Below are positions 38,194 to 45,971 of a stretch of DNA of 64,000 nucleotides, piece after piece. Under the pieces are notes generated by a model, which saw nothing but the letters and a program-made list of their open reading frames with translations, did no database searches and had not been told where the DNA came from. Origin of the DNA: Escherichia coli (GTDB lineage Bacteria; Pseudomonadota; Gammaproteobacteria; Enterobacterales; Enterobacteriaceae); the NCBI RefSeq assembly GCF_050320075.1, contig NZ_CP190021.1, one strand, 5' to 3'. Position 1 is the first letter of the stretch, and each line of letters starts with the position of its first letter. Position numbers and translations under genes: made by a program.

Positions 38194-38745
38194 TCAGGGT
38201 TTCCAGTCTGTACCCTTATTCCAGCGATCCTGCCAGTGTTCAAGATATTGTGCGGCTACATCCGGCATATTCTTGAGCACAACGACATTCTCTGAATTCT
38301 TGCGTGCAGCAGCACGAGAGAAGTTATAGGAGCCAGTTTCAACCGTGTTTCCGTCAACAATGATGACTTTGTCGTGATGGATGGGGAAGGCATCTACAGT
38401 CCGGAGAGGAATGTCCAGCAGGTTGATATATTTCATCGCTTCCTGACTTGCCCGGTTCGTATTCCCCTTGTCATCAACAACAATACGGACGTCCACTCCG
38501 CGTTTTTTCGCTTTTGCCAGCGCATGCATTACATCCGGGTCGGTGAAGGAATATGCCATCATCCTGATGGAGCTTTCCGCACTGTTGATTGTGTCAAGCA
38601 CCAGAGCGGATGCGCTTCCTTCAGGAGAAAAGCCGACCTTCACGGATGGCGTGTCGATCATTGCAAACGATGGTGTCGTGAACAGTAACGGGCATGCCAG
38701 TAGCGATACCCGGAGCAGAGTAACGATAGTTTTTTTACCTGACAT
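38194..38745 (-). CDS. nuc: phospholipase-D-family endonuclease (Nuc-like), secreted
   Basis: Start at internal ATG 38745 giving signal peptide MSGKKTIVTLLRVSLLACPLLFTTPSFA; HKD motif HHDKVIIVDG..GSYNFS. Confidence 0.8.
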   Translation of the reverse strand: MSGKKTIVTLLRVSLLACPLLFTTPSFAMIDTPSVKVGFSPEGSASALVLDTINSAESSIRMMAYSFTDPDVMHALAKAKKRGVDVRIVVDDKGNTNRASQEAMKYINLLDIPLRTVDAFPIHHDKVIIVDGNTVETGSYNFSRAAARKNSENVVVLKNMPDVAAQYLEHWQDRWNKGTDWKP

Positions 38746-38759
38746 AAAGACTCCAGAAT

Positions 38760-39050
38760 TTAATCGAGGCCAGTCCAGTCTCGTGGTGATTCCGTATGGT
38801 GGCGATACCACCATGGACGACCGGAGGCGATGGCCCCTCTCAGAATGCTGAAAATGCGTGTACAGATAGTCCTGACAGTCCAGCCTGAACGGTCGAGAAT
38901 AACGAAAAATAAAATGATGCCGGTGCAAATCCAGAAGGTTGTTTTGGAGGGAAAGGGGCATATAAACAGATAAATCATGGTGAACGGCAGAGGTACGCCC
39001 TGGATGTTGACTGGCGGTGTTGCATATCGCCAGAAACCTTCTCTTTTCAT
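38760..39050 (-). CDS. traK: TraK small membrane protein (IcmT-like, 96 aa)
   Basis: 96 aa with transmembrane helix, ATGA-type overlap with traJ stop; alternate frame to the spurious N-extension of nuc. Confidence 0.6.
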   Translation of the reverse strand: MKREGFWRYATPPVNIQGVPLPFTMIYLFICPFPSKTTFWICTGIILFFVILDRSGWTVRTICTRIFSILRGAIASGRPWWYRHHTESPRDWTGLD

Positions 39051-40195
39051 GACCGTAACTCCCCTGGCGGGATAAAAAGAATCGCTTCTCTTCGGTCAAC
39101 TTCATTCCGGATATACATTTCCAGAATCTGGTCCCGGATACGGCGCTTCTCCTGCCGGATTATGGCATCAATGTGATGCCCCCACTCTGCATGCGGCATT
39201 CCGGAAAGATTGTCGCGAAGCTCATCGTTAATGACGATATATTCCCGGACGGCTTTACGACCACCGTCATTTGTTCTGACCAGAACCTGAACCAGAATGA
39301 ACTGCAACAGTGACAGGACAGCCCAGGCCATCGAATCCCTGATGACAGGGGGAAACAGCCCAAGAAGACGTGCCAGCGTTTCACCAGGAGATTTCGTATG
39401 CATGGTGCTCAGGCAGTAATGCCCGGTGTTGCCTGCCTGTACCGCTGCGTCGGCGGTTTCGTTATCCCTGATCTCACCAACACCGATAATTTCGGGATTA
39501 CGTCGTACAGCAGAACGCAGTCCGGCAGCAAAACTGACCACATCACGCCCGATTTCTGCCTGATGCGGTGGGAGCAGATCGTTTTCATTTCCCAGGATAT
39601 ATTCCACCGGGTCTTCATATGTCACGATTTTGGCGTCGGGGAAATTGTCCATAATGTAACGGTACAGTGCTGAACACAGCGTTGATTTTCCTGACCCGGT
39701 TTCACCACATACAAATCCCAGACCGCTTTTGCAGACCATTGCTTCAAGCAGGTCTGGTTCAATGTTCATGGAGAGAATGTCCGGTATTTCTGTCGGGATG
39801 ACACGCATGGTTATTGAGATTGCTTTCTCCTCCGCACCAGATGTGCCCTGAATGAGGTGAGAGCGTAACCGGATGCGTTCTCCGCGTTTAAGACCATAGC
39901 GCCCGGATGCATCCCCGTTAATCTGTATCGTCCTGTCAACCGGATTGCCTGCCAGAACGCGGGGAATGACTTCCCGACCGAACAGTTCATCAATCAGGGA
40001 GGACATGAGTGTGGTTGGTAACGTTGCACTGGAACAACGCACCCGTCGGCCAAAGCGACTGACAGATACAGGTGACCCGCCGGTCAGATCCACATCACTG
40101 ACTTTATGTGCGGCACACCAGACAAAGAAATGCCGTAGTTCATCTGCAGTGAAACGCTGAAACGGAAAAAGACCAAACTCATCAGGAATATTCAT
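39047..40195 (-). CDS. traJ: TraJ, VirB11/DotB-like secretion ATPase (382 aa)
   Basis: Walker A GETGSGKST; size matches. Confidence 0.9.
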   Translation of the reverse strand: MNIPDEFGLFPFQRFTADELRHFFVWCAAHKVSDVDLTGGSPVSVSRFGRRVRCSSATLPTTLMSSLIDELFGREVIPRVLAGNPVDRTIQINGDASGRYGLKRGERIRLRSHLIQGTSGAEEKAISITMRVIPTEIPDILSMNIEPDLLEAMVCKSGLGFVCGETGSGKSTLCSALYRYIMDNFPDAKIVTYEDPVEYILGNENDLLPPHQAEIGRDVVSFAAGLRSAVRRNPEIIGVGEIRDNETADAAVQAGNTGHYCLSTMHTKSPGETLARLLGLFPPVIRDSMAWAVLSLLQFILVQVLVRTNDGGRKAVREYIVINDELRDNLSGMPHAEWGHHIDAIIRQEKRRIRDQILEMYIRNEVDRREAILFIPPGELRS

Positions 40196-41010
40196 CGGGA
40201 GCCTCCTTCAGTGCCTATAAGCGGACGCCAGTGAGATTTCTGAAGATTGAATTCCGCATGATTTTTAAGGCGACGAACACGATCTCCAGTGACCAGTTTT
40301 TTCCCGTCACCTGTAACGGTTTGCATTTGATCAGAAACATCCGGACGGGTGATCATGCCCTGACGCCAGAGAAGTGAGTACAGCATCATGCCCCGGTAAT
40401 CACGGGTGAGGGTTTTCTGGTTGGCTTCAAGCGTCAGGTCGGCGTTTTGTCTTCCTTCCTGCCATCCCTGCCGTAATGCGGTTTCCCACACTTTTCGTTG
40501 CACGCTGTCTTCTGGAACGACGCTGCCTTCTGTACCCGGAGTGGCTGTTGTTGAAAGCCCCCGGAGAAGCCAGTCACGCCAGCCCGGTGGATTGCTGACA
40601 AAGCGTTCAGGGCGAATGATGGTCCAGACCCGGGAAGAGGTCCGGATTTGATCTGGCGTGATATGAGCTACGTCCTGTGCTTCATCAATAACCGGTGGTA
40701 GCCAGCCTTCCGGGCTAATCAGTGGCCGGAAATCGTATAAGGCATTAAGTGTGCTTTCCCGGGCGTTGAGCGCCTGAATCAGCTCCCATGAACGCTGAGC
40801 CTTGCCACCACGAAATCCAAGCGTTTTACCTGCGTCTGTCAGCATTTTCCAGCGTGTTTCTGACAGACTATCCGGCTTTTCACTTCGTGGTTTAAGCCAT
40901 GCATTAATGTCAGGTGGTGGCGTATTGACACCACCTGGCGAGATGGTAGGGGAAGAAGAACAACCAGTAAGCAGTATTACTGGCAAAAGGAGAGAGGTGA
41001 GTGCTTTCAT
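40192..41010 (-). CDS. traI: TraI lipoprotein (DotC-like)
   Basis: Lipoprotein signal LLTGCSS; 272 aa. Confidence 0.8.
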   Translation of the reverse strand: MKALTSLLLPVILLTGCSSSPTISPGGVNTPPPDINAWLKPRSEKPDSLSETRWKMLTDAGKTLGFRGGKAQRSWELIQALNARESTLNALYDFRPLISPEGWLPPVIDEAQDVAHITPDQIRTSSRVWTIIRPERFVSNPPGWRDWLLRGLSTTATPGTEGSVVPEDSVQRKVWETALRQGWQEGRQNADLTLEANQKTLTRDYRGMMLYSLLWRQGMITRPDVSDQMQTVTGDGKKLVTGDRVRRLKNHAEFNLQKSHWRPLIGTEGGSR

Positions 41011-41465
41011 TTTTTCCGGTTCTCCGGCTGCATGAAGCTGACCTGTAACAAGCCCGGATATTGATGGATTGTTGCTCTCCAGGCTGTCTGGGCTTCAATA
41101 AGTCTCAACGTATTGGAAAACGTCATATCCCGGACGTGAAGGTTGACTGGTAACGGCAGGCGGACACCATTGTAGTTAAACTGCATCCCCCTGACTCTGG
41201 CCAGTTCGTTCAGTAATTCAATTGCATCACCTTCCCAGTCAAAGGAAAGGCGATCGCTGTTAGCTGTCAGAAGATGAGACCCCGTTGAAACCGGAAGTTG
41301 GCCGGAAAATACACCTTTGTCCCATAATGTGTACTGAGTGTGCCGGGTAACCGCCACATCAGAGGCAGCACCGTAGTTACGCGGAACAGGAGTATGCTGA
41401 GAAGGGGAGTTGCAGCCAGCCAGAAAAAGGGCGGCAAGACACCCCGCAGGTATAATACGGTTCAT
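41007..41465 (-). CDS. traH: TraH lipoprotein (DotD-like)
   Basis: Lipoprotein signal FLAGCNS; 152 aa. Confidence 0.8.
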   Translation of the reverse strand: MNRIIPAGCLAALFLAGCNSPSQHTPVPRNYGAASDVAVTRHTQYTLWDKGVFSGQLPVSTGSHLLTANSDRLSFDWEGDAIELLNELARVRGMQFNYNGVRLPLPVNLHVRDMTFSNTLRLIEAQTAWRATIHQYPGLLQVSFMQPENRKK

Positions 41466-41671
41466 AATAATTCCTGAGCAGTTAAATCAGAATGGGATAT
41501 ACCGGTGCTCCGGTACAGACAGGATGATGTTTGTTTCCGGCTATACTTGCGTTACCGGAAATAAATGCCAGTGTGGCCAGGTAAATAGCCTCATAGTTTA
41601 CTGAAGGTGATTATTCCTGATACTGGCTGGTTGATGTGTCGTCAGACATAAAACGAATATGAGCGTAATCT

Positions 41672-41798
41672 TTAACGCTCCGCGCCGAATCGATCCATGA
41701 TGGATGACTCGACGATTTATGAATCGAACGTACCGGCGCTTGTCCCTGAAACAGTTCCCGGCCCTCGTCCGGATAACCTGCAATTCAGACAGGCACAT
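41672..41798 (-). promoter_or_regulatory. bipartite conserved leader element, copy A, upstream of traH
   Basis: Box 1 ttaacgctccgcgccgaatcgatccatgatgg and box 2 ctgcaattcagacaggcacat recur at 62169-62292 and 63231-63361. Confidence 0.5.
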
Positions 41799-41859
41799 GT
41801 GCCCGTACACTCTTGTATCTTACTGAGTATATCAGAATTTATGTAAATTCAAATATCCT

Positions 41860-42444
41860 CTATGCCTCTTTGTTGTATTTTCCGTCAAGTATGAGCCGGG
41901 TACCATCGTAATGCATGATCAGGGCATCAAGGTACGCCGGTTTGAATTTCTTGCCGAGCCTATCTCTGGCCAGAAATGATAAACAATGATTATGTGTCAT
42001 TATTACTATGTTCCTTTTATGAGATTCTCTTGCGATTGATTCAAGCGTCTTATAAAGATCATTATTGCAGTCTGATAAACTGTCCATAACGACGGGTTCT
42101 TTACCGGAGAAGAATTTTGCAGTTTGTATGGTTCTTACCGCATTGCTGGAGTAAATATCATATTCACTGAAGATTGTTGCGAACTTAATACCTTCCTGCT
42201 GTGCTTTCTCTGTACCGGTAATAGTGATTCCGCTTTTATCCGAATAGCATGGCATATCTGAACGGTCGCAACGTTCTCCATGGCGGAAAAGGAAAATAAC
42301 GGTGTTATCAGCATTAATTTCTTTTGCCTGTTCCAGGGTGATATCGGGAAGCGAGCTTTTTGCTTTTGTCACTGCCGCTACCAGGAAAACAGAAAATAAA
42401 AGAATGAATGCTGTTTTTGAATAAGAAGAACGTGGTTTCATCAT
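41860..42444 (-). CDS. traG: histidine phosphatase (phosphoglycerate-mutase-like) family protein with signal peptide, at the traG position
   Basis: RHGER catalytic motif (LFRHGERCD); N-terminal signal peptide; symbol is positional only. Confidence 0.55.
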   Translation of the reverse strand: MMKPRSSYSKTAFILLFSVFLVAAVTKAKSSLPDITLEQAKEINADNTVIFLFRHGERCDRSDMPCYSDKSGITITGTEKAQQEGIKFATIFSEYDIYSSNAVRTIQTAKFFSGKEPVVMDSLSDCNNDLYKTLESIARESHKRNIVIMTHNHCLSFLARDRLGKKFKPAYLDALIMHYDGTRLILDGKYNKEA

Positions 42445-42503
42445 GTTATTTAAACTGAATATAAAAATACCCCCGGGTTTAGTGCCGGGGGCGGGGACAG
42501 TAA

Positions 42504-43706
42504 TCAGAAAGTGAACTGAAGTTGTGCCATTGCACCGTAATCGTGGTCAGTTCCTACCAGGCCGGAAACATCGATATGTACGACGTCAAATGGAGAGATA
42601 CCAACGCCAGCGGTGAAGGCGCTTCCGGAGTTTGATGCCATGTTCTGACGATAACCGGCACGCAATTGCGCCCATTTCCATGCGTTAAATTCAGCACCAA
42701 CACTTGCAAACTGACGTTTGCTGTCAGAAGTGAAGCCACTGGCAGGAGTCAGATCAATGTCAAGAGCAGTGGTAAACAGGTCATTATGCCAGGATACACC
42801 GGCGGTTGCCTGCGGACGAACTTTGAAGGTTTCTTTAAAGCCATTGACGACTTTAGTATCAATACTGCGTGGAATGATGTTCTGGGCAACAAGACCGACA
42901 GTCCAGTTGTCATTCAGGTCTGTATAAGCACCAATATCGGCGTTGAATCCGTTTTTCGTGTTGTGGTACTTGTCACCGTCAAAATCGTCTTTGTCGTAAT
43001 CACGAACCGTTACGTTGTAGTTAAACAGGTCCACACGCTGATATTTTGGTGTGACGCCAAGAGACCATTTTTGTCCGGCCGTTTCCAGTTCTTTGGCAAA
43101 TGAAATTCCGACGTCGGTAATTACAGCTGCACGCCCGAATGCGCGTGAGGTCAGGGCATTCTTATCGACGTCGGTAATTGTTCCATTGGCAACTTTGTCC
43201 AGATAATCCAGGTCTGCATCGTTTACTTTTCCGTTTACGCTGACAGTTCCGTAAGACTTGACCATAAGGGCAAACGGCAGAGTGTCATTTGCCATGGCTG
43301 CTACAGCTGATACACCTACCTGAGCATCTGCATTGATATTGCGGAATTCCTGCAGACGATGTTTAAGATTTGCCGCTGCCTGTTGTACGCCATGCTGGTT
43401 ATCTACAGCACTGTCAAACAAATCCCAGTCATCTTTAACATCATCAGCTTTATTTGATACATCATCAGGATCAGCAACTTGTGCCCCAACAGACGGCAGA
43501 AGAAGGCTGAAATCATCATTGCTGTTGTGCTTTGTCAGTAAAGCCGGGTTTGCCAGAGGTGCCACACCATAATGGGAAGATGCTACCCCGGTACCACCCA
43601 TTGCATCGTTACGCGCTTCAAAATATGACGTCGCTGCTGCAGCGTTAAAGGAAAATAATACAGCAGATGCAATGATGGTGCGGGTAATATGATTTTTCTT
43701 CATCAT
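42504..43706 (-). CDS. traF: TraF outer-membrane beta-barrel-like protein
   Basis: Signal peptide, alternating beta-strand pattern, C-terminal aromatic LQFTF; 400 aa. Confidence 0.7.
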   Translation of the reverse strand: MMKKNHITRTIIASAVLFSFNAAAATSYFEARNDAMGGTGVASSHYGVAPLANPALLTKHNSNDDFSLLLPSVGAQVADPDDVSNKADDVKDDWDLFDSAVDNQHGVQQAAANLKHRLQEFRNINADAQVGVSAVAAMANDTLPFALMVKSYGTVSVNGKVNDADLDYLDKVANGTITDVDKNALTSRAFGRAAVITDVGISFAKELETAGQKWSLGVTPKYQRVDLFNYNVTVRDYDKDDFDGDKYHNTKNGFNADIGAYTDLNDNWTVGLVAQNIIPRSIDTKVVNGFKETFKVRPQATAGVSWHNDLFTTALDIDLTPASGFTSDSKRQFASVGAEFNAWKWAQLRAGYRQNMASNSGSAFTAGVGISPFDVVHIDVSGLVGTDHDYGAMAQLQFTF

Positions 43707-43790: not shown

Positions 43791-44615
43791 TTACCAGGGT
43801 AATAAAGACGTATTAAATAAGCTAACAGGTAGTATTTGCCCTGTAATAAGGTTCCCGGCAAGGCCAGGTCTCAACGTGACGCGTCGCAAAGACATTGTTG
43901 TATTCTGCCTGGTTGTATATTCAGTTAACCATTTTCTTTTTTCATCGTTCAGAAGTGTTGGTGATAATGATAGTGCCGGATATATTACAGAGCCATTTAT
44001 TTCTTTTTTCTGTCTCAATATTACCCCGCAATATTCTCTTTTCGTATTTCCTGCGAAGGGGAAACTATGCCAGAAAATAACTTCAGTGTTGCTGCTATCA
44101 CTAATAAGCATTCTGAAATTATCAGCAGTATCTGGCCATTCACCGGACAACGCTATCGGATAGTTTTCATGGCCATTCAGCCAGTCCGGATTGAGATTAA
44201 AACATTCAGCAAGATGTTCGAGAGCGTCAGCTGAAAGATAGTCTGCAAGTCTGGCCGGGTCCTGTATAACCGTGGAGCGGATATTCCATGGCGACAGCAA
44301 TGTTGCCAGTAATGGCGCATTTATATCATGCGACAGCATGATGTATTCAATTCTGCTTATTATGTTTCCTGTGGTGTTATCCGCAGGCATAAACATATTA
44401 TGAAGAGCATCCTCAAGCAGGATTCGGGTTAAATCAGCGGTGGATATGGCTAATTGTTCGCTCATTATCCCCAGAACTTCTCTTACCCCTTGGGGGTAAC
44501 GGACCTGCAGAGGTGTCGGGTTTATCTGACGACCGTTGATGAGTTTTTCGCCGATTGCTTTTTTGTCCAGCGAGAGCATCATTCGGGCCGCAATACCGGT
44601 CGTATTCAGTCTCAT
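43791..44615 (-). CDS. traE: TraE
   Basis: 274 aa; last tra gene before rci; synteny only. Confidence 0.6.
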   Translation of the reverse strand: MRLNTTGIAARMMLSLDKKAIGEKLINGRQINPTPLQVRYPQGVREVLGIMSEQLAISTADLTRILLEDALHNMFMPADNTTGNIISRIEYIMLSHDINAPLLATLLSPWNIRSTVIQDPARLADYLSADALEHLAECFNLNPDWLNGHENYPIALSGEWPDTADNFRMLISDSSNTEVIFWHSFPFAGNTKREYCGVILRQKKEINGSVIYPALSLSPTLLNDEKRKWLTEYTTRQNTTMSLRRVTLRPGLAGNLITGQILPVSLFNTSLLPW

Positions 44616-44765: not shown

Positions 44766-45920
44766 TTACAGCGGGGTGCTGCCCGGGTTCAGAGGGCAAA
44801 TCATAATGTAGTCAGGGTCGTTAACAGGTAACGCTCCGGGAGATGGGACACGTTCGCCTTTCTGTGCTGCAATGGCCAGTGTACGCAACAAAACCTCACT
44901 GGCGCGGTGAACTGCTTCCTCTTTCGTTGTGGCAGTGACGTGAAGGTTATCAAAATCACCGATCTCAATACGATGCGCTTTCTGCCCATTTTCTTCATCG
45001 ATGGTCGTGATATGGGCAGGATACGGCACAAACCATGCTGCTACTTTTTGTGTCTGCCGCCGGCGGGCATCAAGCTTACTGACCAGTTGCCATGCACGAA
45101 GATGAGTATACCGTTTCAGCATATTCATGGAACGATGTCCTGATATTGCAGCAATCTCCATTACATTCAGGCTACCCAGTTCGAAGAAGCGGCTTATTGC
45201 TTCATGCCGTAGATCGTGAAAATGCAGGTCCTCGATGCGAAGTCGTTGTGTGGCTATTCTCCAGGCATTTTTAAAGCCGGATGCGGTGTAATCAAAAACA
45301 TTGCCGTGGAGATTAACGGGCATCATCTGAAGAAAGTTACGGGCACGTCTGGACAGAGGAACATCCCGTGAGTGACCGTTTTTGGTTTCAGGTAAATGAG
45401 CCACACCGTGGCGCAAATCAATGTGCTCCCAACGTAAGGCCAGTATTTCGCCCTGCCGCATGGCTGTCTCAAGGGCAAGATGGAAAATGACATACAACAT
45501 CAGATTTTTTTCGCGGAAATAGCGAGAAAGGCGACGTTCTTCTGAAGACGTTAGCCGGCGATCTCGTCCCGAGGATACTTTCGGCTTGCGAACCAGTTCA
45601 ACCGGGTTAGTACGACAGGTTCCCCATTCAACACGAGCAATATTGAACAGAGATGACAGAAGGGCGAGTTCAAGACGTACAGTATTACCTGTAATGGGTT
45701 TACCCGTTCGGGGGTTGATTTCTGCTAAACGAACGTCTCTGTATGTAGCAATATCAACGGTTGTTATTTCGTCCATATTCCGAAGGGCAATGGGATATCG
45801 CTTGATAACATTGCTCCGGTAAAACTCCTGTTGATGCCCTTTCTTGTGAACAGAAACTGTTTTCAGGTACTTATCCAGTGCGCGTGACAGGGACATTTTA
45901 CGGATGCGTGGAGACGGCAT
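44766..45920 (-). CDS. rci: shufflon-specific tyrosine recombinase Rci (384 aa)
   Basis: Start [19 protein letters not shown]; tyrosine recombinase motifs (R..HDLRH..Y); directly adjacent to the 19-bp shufflon repeats. Confidence 0.92.
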
Positions 45921-45971
45921 GCTAACCTCAAAAGAGGCAAAAAATAATGCCAACAATCATTCTCTGCAAGC

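Follow-up and report, generated by a model that had tools for sequence, protein, structure and literature searches.

The IncI1 plasmid gene traG is an accessory insert encoding a predicted exported homologue of Ais/PmrG lipopolysaccharide-core phosphatases

The window analysed here, a stretch of 64,000 nucleotides of Escherichia coli DNA, belongs to an R64-type IncI1 plasmid. The DNA of traG within it was 100% identical to that of plasmid R64 (NC_005014.1, positions 99096-99680), and the gene order rci-traE-traF-traG-traH-traI-traJ, with all genes on the minus strand, agreed with that of R64, bearing out the placement of this gene at the traG position in an initial annotation made from the sequence. 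RefSeq lists the R64 product as a 'histidine phosphatase family protein' (WP_000977522.1). Earlier records (RefSeq, PMC4288162, PMC6112013) already covered the gene and its superfamily, the Ais-type annotation and the finding that transfer does not need it. The present analysis adds modestly to them, with a confirmation of the fold, the pattern of catalytic residues and cysteines across the family, and evidence that traG is an insert specific to IncI1 that has undergone recombination of its own. The features of the locus are as follows.

44766-45956, minus strand: rci.
43791-44615, minus strand: traE (274 aa).
42504-43706, minus strand: traF, encoding a TraF_2/PorV-like outer-membrane beta-barrel (Pfam PF13729, 4.5e-73); the 5' neighbour of traG and left border of the insert.
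42469-42492, minus strand: G+C-rich, terminator-like hairpin just 3' of the traF stop codon, with 8 pairs (7 of them GC) and then a U-run (tail ATTTTTATAT).
41860-42444, minus strand: traG coding sequence from the list of open reading frames, including the signal peptide (194 aa; stop codon at 41860-41862).
41650-41859, minus strand: structured non-coding stretch of about 210 nt, 3' of traG (RNA fold of -72.7 kcal/mol, z -4.57).
41007-41465, minus strand: traH, encoding a DotD-like lipoprotein (Pfam DotD, 1.2e-17); it opens the traH-trbC block, which is essential for transfer, and bounds the insert on the right.
40192-41010, minus strand: traI.
39047-40195, minus strand: traJ, encoding a DotB-like ATPase.

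Alignment against IncK2/Z plasmids showed that IncI1 carries traG plus approximately 390 nt of non-coding DNA between the post-traF hairpin and traH. In the conjugative MPF_I plasmid pINF161.3 (IncK2/Z), the order is pilV, rci, traE, traF, 103 nt and then traH, with traG absent. A 401-nt probe spanning this traF-traH junction without traG matched 281 IncK/Z-type plasmids, 276 of which were typed as conjugative. The hairpin itself (-19.2 kcal/mol, z -1.8) is kept in IncK2/Z and in an IncI-type contig, L007, with the U-run found in the window version only; because of this conservation, the hairpin predates the insertion of traG, and it marks the left edge of the inserted DNA. The base composition also changes across the region, with a GC content of 40.3% in traG, 47.0% in traF and 51-52.6% from traH to traJ. 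The structured element on the other side of traG belongs to the same IncI1-specific insert, is absent from IncK2/Z and is 78-84% conserved in L007. Within it lies a perfect 12-nt palindrome (GGCACATGTGCC), and at its end a terminator-like hairpin (41661-41680) is followed by a U-run; RefSeq has no annotation here. An Rfam scan of positions 41300-42700 found no family, the sole match reaching 15.8 bits where the gathering score is 50; the element may represent a small RNA or a structured 3'UTR.

The genetic literature likewise separates traG from transfer. In PMC6112013, which cites Komano 2000, traEFG are given as not required for R64 transfer, and the same article describes IncM plasmids as lacking traEFG. 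In a transposon-insertion sequencing screen of the IncI1 plasmid pESBL, run on solid medium only, TraG scored 0.79 for non-essential, 0.21 for maintenance and 0.00 for required for transfer, and the general conjugation cluster was delimited as traH-trbC (PMC4288162). We note that traE, which like traF and traG is reported to be dispensable for transfer, stays with traF in IncK2/Z, unlike traG. A component of the IncI1/Dot-Icm type IVB machinery would be expected to be required for transfer and conserved across MPF_I systems, whereas traG is absent from both IncK2/Z and IncM. Collectively, traG is dispensable for conjugation and separable from it, and it is an accessory insert between traF and traH, outside the type IVB transfer machine.

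The insert has a recombination history distinct from that of its flanks. Between L007 and the window, traE, traF, traH, traI and traJ are 95.4-99.8% identical (traF 99.8% at the nucleotide level), whereas the traG allele (L007, 7001-7579) reaches 75.9% nucleotide and 71.6% amino-acid identity, with the break exactly at the traF stop codon. Given a dS of about 1 within conserved flanks, we attribute this divergence to a localised replacement of the allele by recombination and not to drift in place. A further allele, intact and 87% identical, was found on a plasmid contig that carries virulence-type genes (dispersin, Aat-transporter-like and T2SS-fragment genes; L011). We considered this copy as an independent mobile cassette and rejected the idea, since blastn showed that homology to the window (L011, 6817-7587) begins in the last ~125 nt of traF and runs through the traG stop codon. 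The presence of this piece of traF identifies the copy as a remnant of an IncI-type tra region, so that on this contig traG has outlived the remainder of a tra region.

Turning to the protein, the sole significant Pfam match of the 194-aa TraG was His_Phos_1 (PF00300; E=1.4e-8, 35.1 bits against a cut-off of 21.7), which aligned over residues 50-123 only. The NCBIfam model NF011945, 'LPS core heptose(II)-phosphate phosphatase', matched far more extensively (E=2.2e-88, 295.1 bits against a cut-off of 142), aligning residues 1-192 with profile positions 4-200 of 201, and the next-best NCBIfam family reached only E=3e-4. TraG fell short of the PmrG equivalog NF052369 (123.7 bits against a cut-off of 170), a shortfall carrying little information because K-12 Ais (145.8 bits) and every other homologue tried failed it as well. 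By sequence profile, then, TraG is a homologue of the Ais/PmrG family of LPS-core phosphatases. A homologue search of 1.84 billion representative proteins returned 131 relatives; 71 were taken into the alignment, of which 54 also matched PF00300. Six positions were invariant across the 71 homologues (H55, R104, C59, C66, C126 and G72) and seven more were at least 90% conserved (R54, E57, R58, D60, T150, H151 and C154). The predicted catalytic positions lie in three segments.

42259-42285, minus strand: RHGERCDRS motif, residues 54-62 (RHGER, 54-58), containing R54, H55 (the predicted phospho-acceptor), R58, C59 and D60, from conservation in the 71 homologues.
42118-42150, minus strand: SSNAVRTIQTA, residues 99-109, containing R104, the predicted second phosphate-binding arginine, from conservation and alignment.
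41983-41997, minus strand: THNHC, residues 150-154, containing H151, the predicted second catalytic histidine, and C154, from conservation and alignment.

Searching the PDB directly with TraG alone gave no match, and a profile of the homologue alignment was used to align the family to fructose-2,6-bisphosphatase. The RH(G/A)E of the TraG family aligned to CRHGES of that enzyme, the S..RT.QTA around R104 to TSHMKRTIQTA, and the THx around H151 to ICHQ, segments that in this enzyme carry the histidine that is phosphorylated, an arginine that binds the phosphate and a second histidine. The alignment thereby points to a predicted catalytic core (the RHG histidine, two further arginines and a second histidine) at R54-H55, R58, R104 and H151. 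The AF2 model (pLDDT 95, pTM 0.85) predicts that the whole domain adopts the alpha/beta fold of branch 1 of the histidine phosphatase superfamily. The nearest solved structures share 9-21% identity with TraG and belong to enzymes acting on FMN analogues, phosphoserine, phosphohistidine and sugar bisphosphates. The superfamily assignment that the initial annotation had drawn from the RHGER motif is therefore upheld by both the sequence profiles and the predicted fold. Four family-conserved cysteines (C59, C66, C126 and C154) probably stabilise the protein through disulfides.

The same annotation had assigned a signal peptide to this tra-operon protein, and our calculations of charge, hydrophobicity and the -3/-1 rule agreed.

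42361-42444, minus strand: predicted Sec signal peptide, residues 1-28 (MMKPRSSYSKTAFILLFSVFLVAAVTKA).

The n-region MMKPRSSYSK, encoded by an open reading frame that begins with ATGATG, carries a charge of 3+ and is followed by a 15-residue hydrophobic core (Kyte-Doolittle values up to 3.06). A putative cleavage site, TKA|KS, lies after residue 28 and is consistent with the -3/-1 rule. In the AF2 model, residues 10-27 form a lone helix, and no lipobox cysteine was found in the signal region. These features would place mature TraG in the periplasm.

We compared TraG with known systems. Ais of E. coli (b2252) and PmrG of Salmonella are described as PmrA-regulated periplasmic LPS core heptose(II)-phosphate phosphatases, the K-12 ais gene adjoining arnB. 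TraG is 43% identical to K-12 Ais over 164 aa, the whole mature domain (E=2e-51). Both proteins belong to the NF011945 subfamily (295 bits for TraG, 392 bits for K-12 Ais), are about 194-200 aa long with an N-terminal signal sequence, and share the R-H-x-E-R-C-D-R-S, SSN.VRTIQ.A and THNHC motifs together with the four cysteines. They differ in that the motif reads RHAER in Ais and RHGER in TraG, in that traG is plasmid-borne between traF and traH whereas ais lies beside the arn operon, and in that traG, with its GC content of 40%, has no detectable PmrA box. A search for YTTAAK-N5-YTTAAK found none upstream of traG; across the 64-kb window there were four one-mismatch matches, compared with a chance expectation of 2.9. 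SixA/PhoE-type minimal branch-1 histidine phosphatases (PDB 1ujc, 1h2e and 3r7a) are only 13-21% identical to TraG and, unlike it, are cytoplasmic, without a signal peptide or conserved cysteines, and act on other substrates. With the TraG/VirD4 coupling proteins of IncP and Ti plasmids and the mating-pair stabilisation protein TraG of the F plasmid, the IncI1 protein has only the name in common. To our knowledge, 'TraG' is a positional name in IncI1, unrelated in sequence, size and domain to the coupling and mating-pair proteins of IncP and IncF.

Further relatives of TraG were encountered on other mobile DNA. Ais-family paralogues lie on E. coli plasmid-like contigs at 8001-8582 of L003-L006 and at 732-1307 of L009 (44% and 60% identical to TraG). 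One of them adjoins an EAL-domain gene, two hydrolases and a 1284-aa SPATE autotransporter, and the other adjoins AraC-type and GrlA/CaiF-type regulators. Such plasmid- or island-borne paralogues (P0033 beside the SPATE autotransporter and P0020 beside the AraC-type regulators) score 201-212 bits with NF011945 and resemble TraG in identity (44-60%) and in being carried on mobile DNA; they differ from it in having neighbourhoods unrelated to conjugation and in being more distant from canonical Ais. In view of these occurrences, the LPS-core phosphatase family appears to be a recurrent mobile or plasmid cargo. In L011 and L004, open reading frames of 194-195 aa close to the paralogues were considered as extra Ais copies and discarded, as BLASTP found zero similarity.

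Taken as a whole, our preferred reading, to which we assign a probability of roughly 0.6, is that TraG is an accessory protein outside the transfer machine, an exported phosphatase of the Ais/PmrG type whose target is heptose II in the host LPS core. Salmonella PmrG dephosphorylates heptose II of the LPS core, as stated in PMC8129183, citing Nishino 2006. Because the two proteins share family-specific motifs, catalysis of the same reaction by TraG is our best guess, held with about the same confidence as the reading as a whole. In this mechanism, H55 would attack a phosphomonoester gripped by R54, R58 and R104, with H151 assisting, and a phospho-histidine intermediate would form and then be hydrolysed. 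By homology to the Salmonella enzyme, the substrate would be the heptose II phosphate in the inner LPS core of the cell that carries the plasmid, and its loss would leave less negative charge on the core. Since no PmrA box is recognisable, TraG may act independently of the PmrA/PmrB signal. The heptose(II)-phosphate substrate, as well as any benefit to host or plasmid, is a deduction from this homology; the literature searched contained no functional study of IncI1 TraG and no biochemical or genetic test of its substrate. Some points count against the preferred reading: with an identity of only 43%, TraG could differ from Ais in substrate specificity; RefSeq calls K-12 Ais itself 'putative'; no residue of TraG could be assigned as the proton donor; and hosts already have a chromosomal ais/pmrG, making TraG a second copy. 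A further point, concerning expression, is taken up below.

IncI1 plasmids have a major part in carrying ESBL and CMY genes in E. coli and Salmonella, and almost all of them have an intact TraG (1374 of about 1375 traH-positive PLSDB records). If TraG strips the heptose II phosphate without PmrA, the LPS core would be slightly remodelled in every IncI1 host, with possible effects on tolerance of Fe3+/Al3+ and cationic peptides, on phage and colicin receptors and on PilV-mediated mating.

Among the alternatives, the one that survives best, while still unlikely, is that TraG is an exported phosphatase with another substrate, such as lipid A phosphates, a phosphoprotein of the periplasm or pilus, or small metabolites or nucleotides that bear phosphate. 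The histidine-phosphatase fold is promiscuous, as reflected in the varied substrates of the nearest structures at 9-21% identity; the identity to Ais is only 43%, and one source labels TraG 'broad specificity phosphatase PhoE'. Against such a substrate stand the full-length match to NF011945 far above its cut-off (295 vs 142 bits), with the next family at E=3e-4, and the Ais-specific features present in TraG, namely the RxERCDRS motif, the four cysteines, THNHC and a YLD motif.

We rate it as a slightly smaller chance that TraG tunes conjugation itself, a dephosphorylated LPS core on the donor or new transconjugant altering how the PilV thin-pilus adhesin engages it. TraG might, for example, lessen donor-donor binding or help mating aggregates to form in liquid or in the gut, effects that plate matings would miss; the pESBL screen was on solid medium only. 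The gene lies about 2 kb from rci and shufflon/pilV, and the PilV variants of R64 and TP114 recognise LPS core structures, which for one variant is an inner-core motif, Hep-Hep-4-phosphate (PMC10654706). Moreover, traG is the sole divergent, swapped gene in a block that is 95-100% identical, as a gene for surface interactions might be. However, the phosphate that WaaY adds to HepII was irrelevant to recognition by TP114 PilVA', the one inner-core-binding adhesin tested (PMC10654706), and R64 traG mutants are reported as transfer-proficient in PMC6112013. IncK2/Z plasmids hold pilV, the shufflon, rci, traE and traF without traG, which uncouples traG from the pilus system, and the low dN/dS of traG (see below) gives no sign of diversifying selection. 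A broader and more speculative form of this idea, in our estimate a long shot, makes TraG a conjugation-linked surface editor: PmrA-independent dephosphorylation of the host core would change how the PilV tip, or core-dependent phages and colicins, see donors and transconjugants, amounting to self/non-self marking or receptor-level exclusion. Were this so, the swapped, 76%-identical allele would represent adaptation to different host core types.

Next, we considered whether traG might be silent or decaying cargo, a pseudo-enzyme or unexpressed remnant. The start codon lies 25 nt past the terminator-like post-traF hairpin, and neither a Shine-Dalgarno sequence ahead of traG nor a promoter-like site just upstream was found. 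These features leave expression uncertain and also count against our preferred reading of an exported Ais/PmrG-type phosphatase; expression by read-through transcription with weak translation is plausible. Rare variants of the product of 41860-42444 (proteins P0001, P0002 and P0003) point in the same direction: R54H, which turns RHG into HHG, occurs on 13 contigs; an in-frame deletion of six residues (MPCYSD) between SD repeats, which loses the invariant C66, occurs on 10; and C-terminal truncations also occur. Cluster representatives had suggested that such damaged alleles were common, an impression that exact look-ups overturned, as the window protein itself was present on at least 1000 contigs compared with 10-13 for R54H and the deletion, and truncations were likewise far rarer than the intact allele. 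The dN/dS of traG against divergent alleles was 0.15 for L007 (dS ~1.05) and 0.17 for L011, all catalytic and cysteine positions are intact in TraG, and PLSDB lists traG in 1374 records and traH in 1375. All this shows a genuine, conserved gene on which purifying selection acts, and silent cargo is accordingly a very improbable account. The dN/dS of about 0.15 and the conserved catalytic residues together indicate that TraG is, by prediction, an active enzyme.

The least probable alternative is that TraG is a structural or enzymatic part required by the IncI1 type IVB secretion/conjugation apparatus. In its favour are the position of the gene among the transfer genes, with traF and traH on either side, and the historical 'tra' name; against it stand the dispensability of the gene in R64 (PMC6112013) and pESBL (PMC4288162), its absence from IncM and from the 281 plasmids of IncK/Z type (276 of them conjugative by typing), its foreign-looking GC content and its survival intact where tra genes are gone (L011). 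The initial annotation had regarded the protein as a secretion-system component with an unexpected activity, a view that the R64 and pESBL results and the 281 plasmids without traG contradict. The observation it had itself named as contrary, transfer without the catalytic residues, has in effect been made for the whole gene in the R64 and pESBL literature, and traG should not be counted among secretion-system components.

Two observations concern neighbouring genes. TraE gave zero matches in Pfam, NCBIfam, PHROGs and PADLOC; as TraE, TraF and TraG all gave zero matches in PADLOC and PHROGs, an annotation as anti-phage defence is without support. Further along the operon, a long open reading frame of 303 aa at 38194-39105 on the minus strand takes in nuc, a phospholipase-D-family nuclease of 183 aa in R64; this frame is nuc over-extended upstream, where traK (96 aa, 38760-39050) overlaps it in a different frame.
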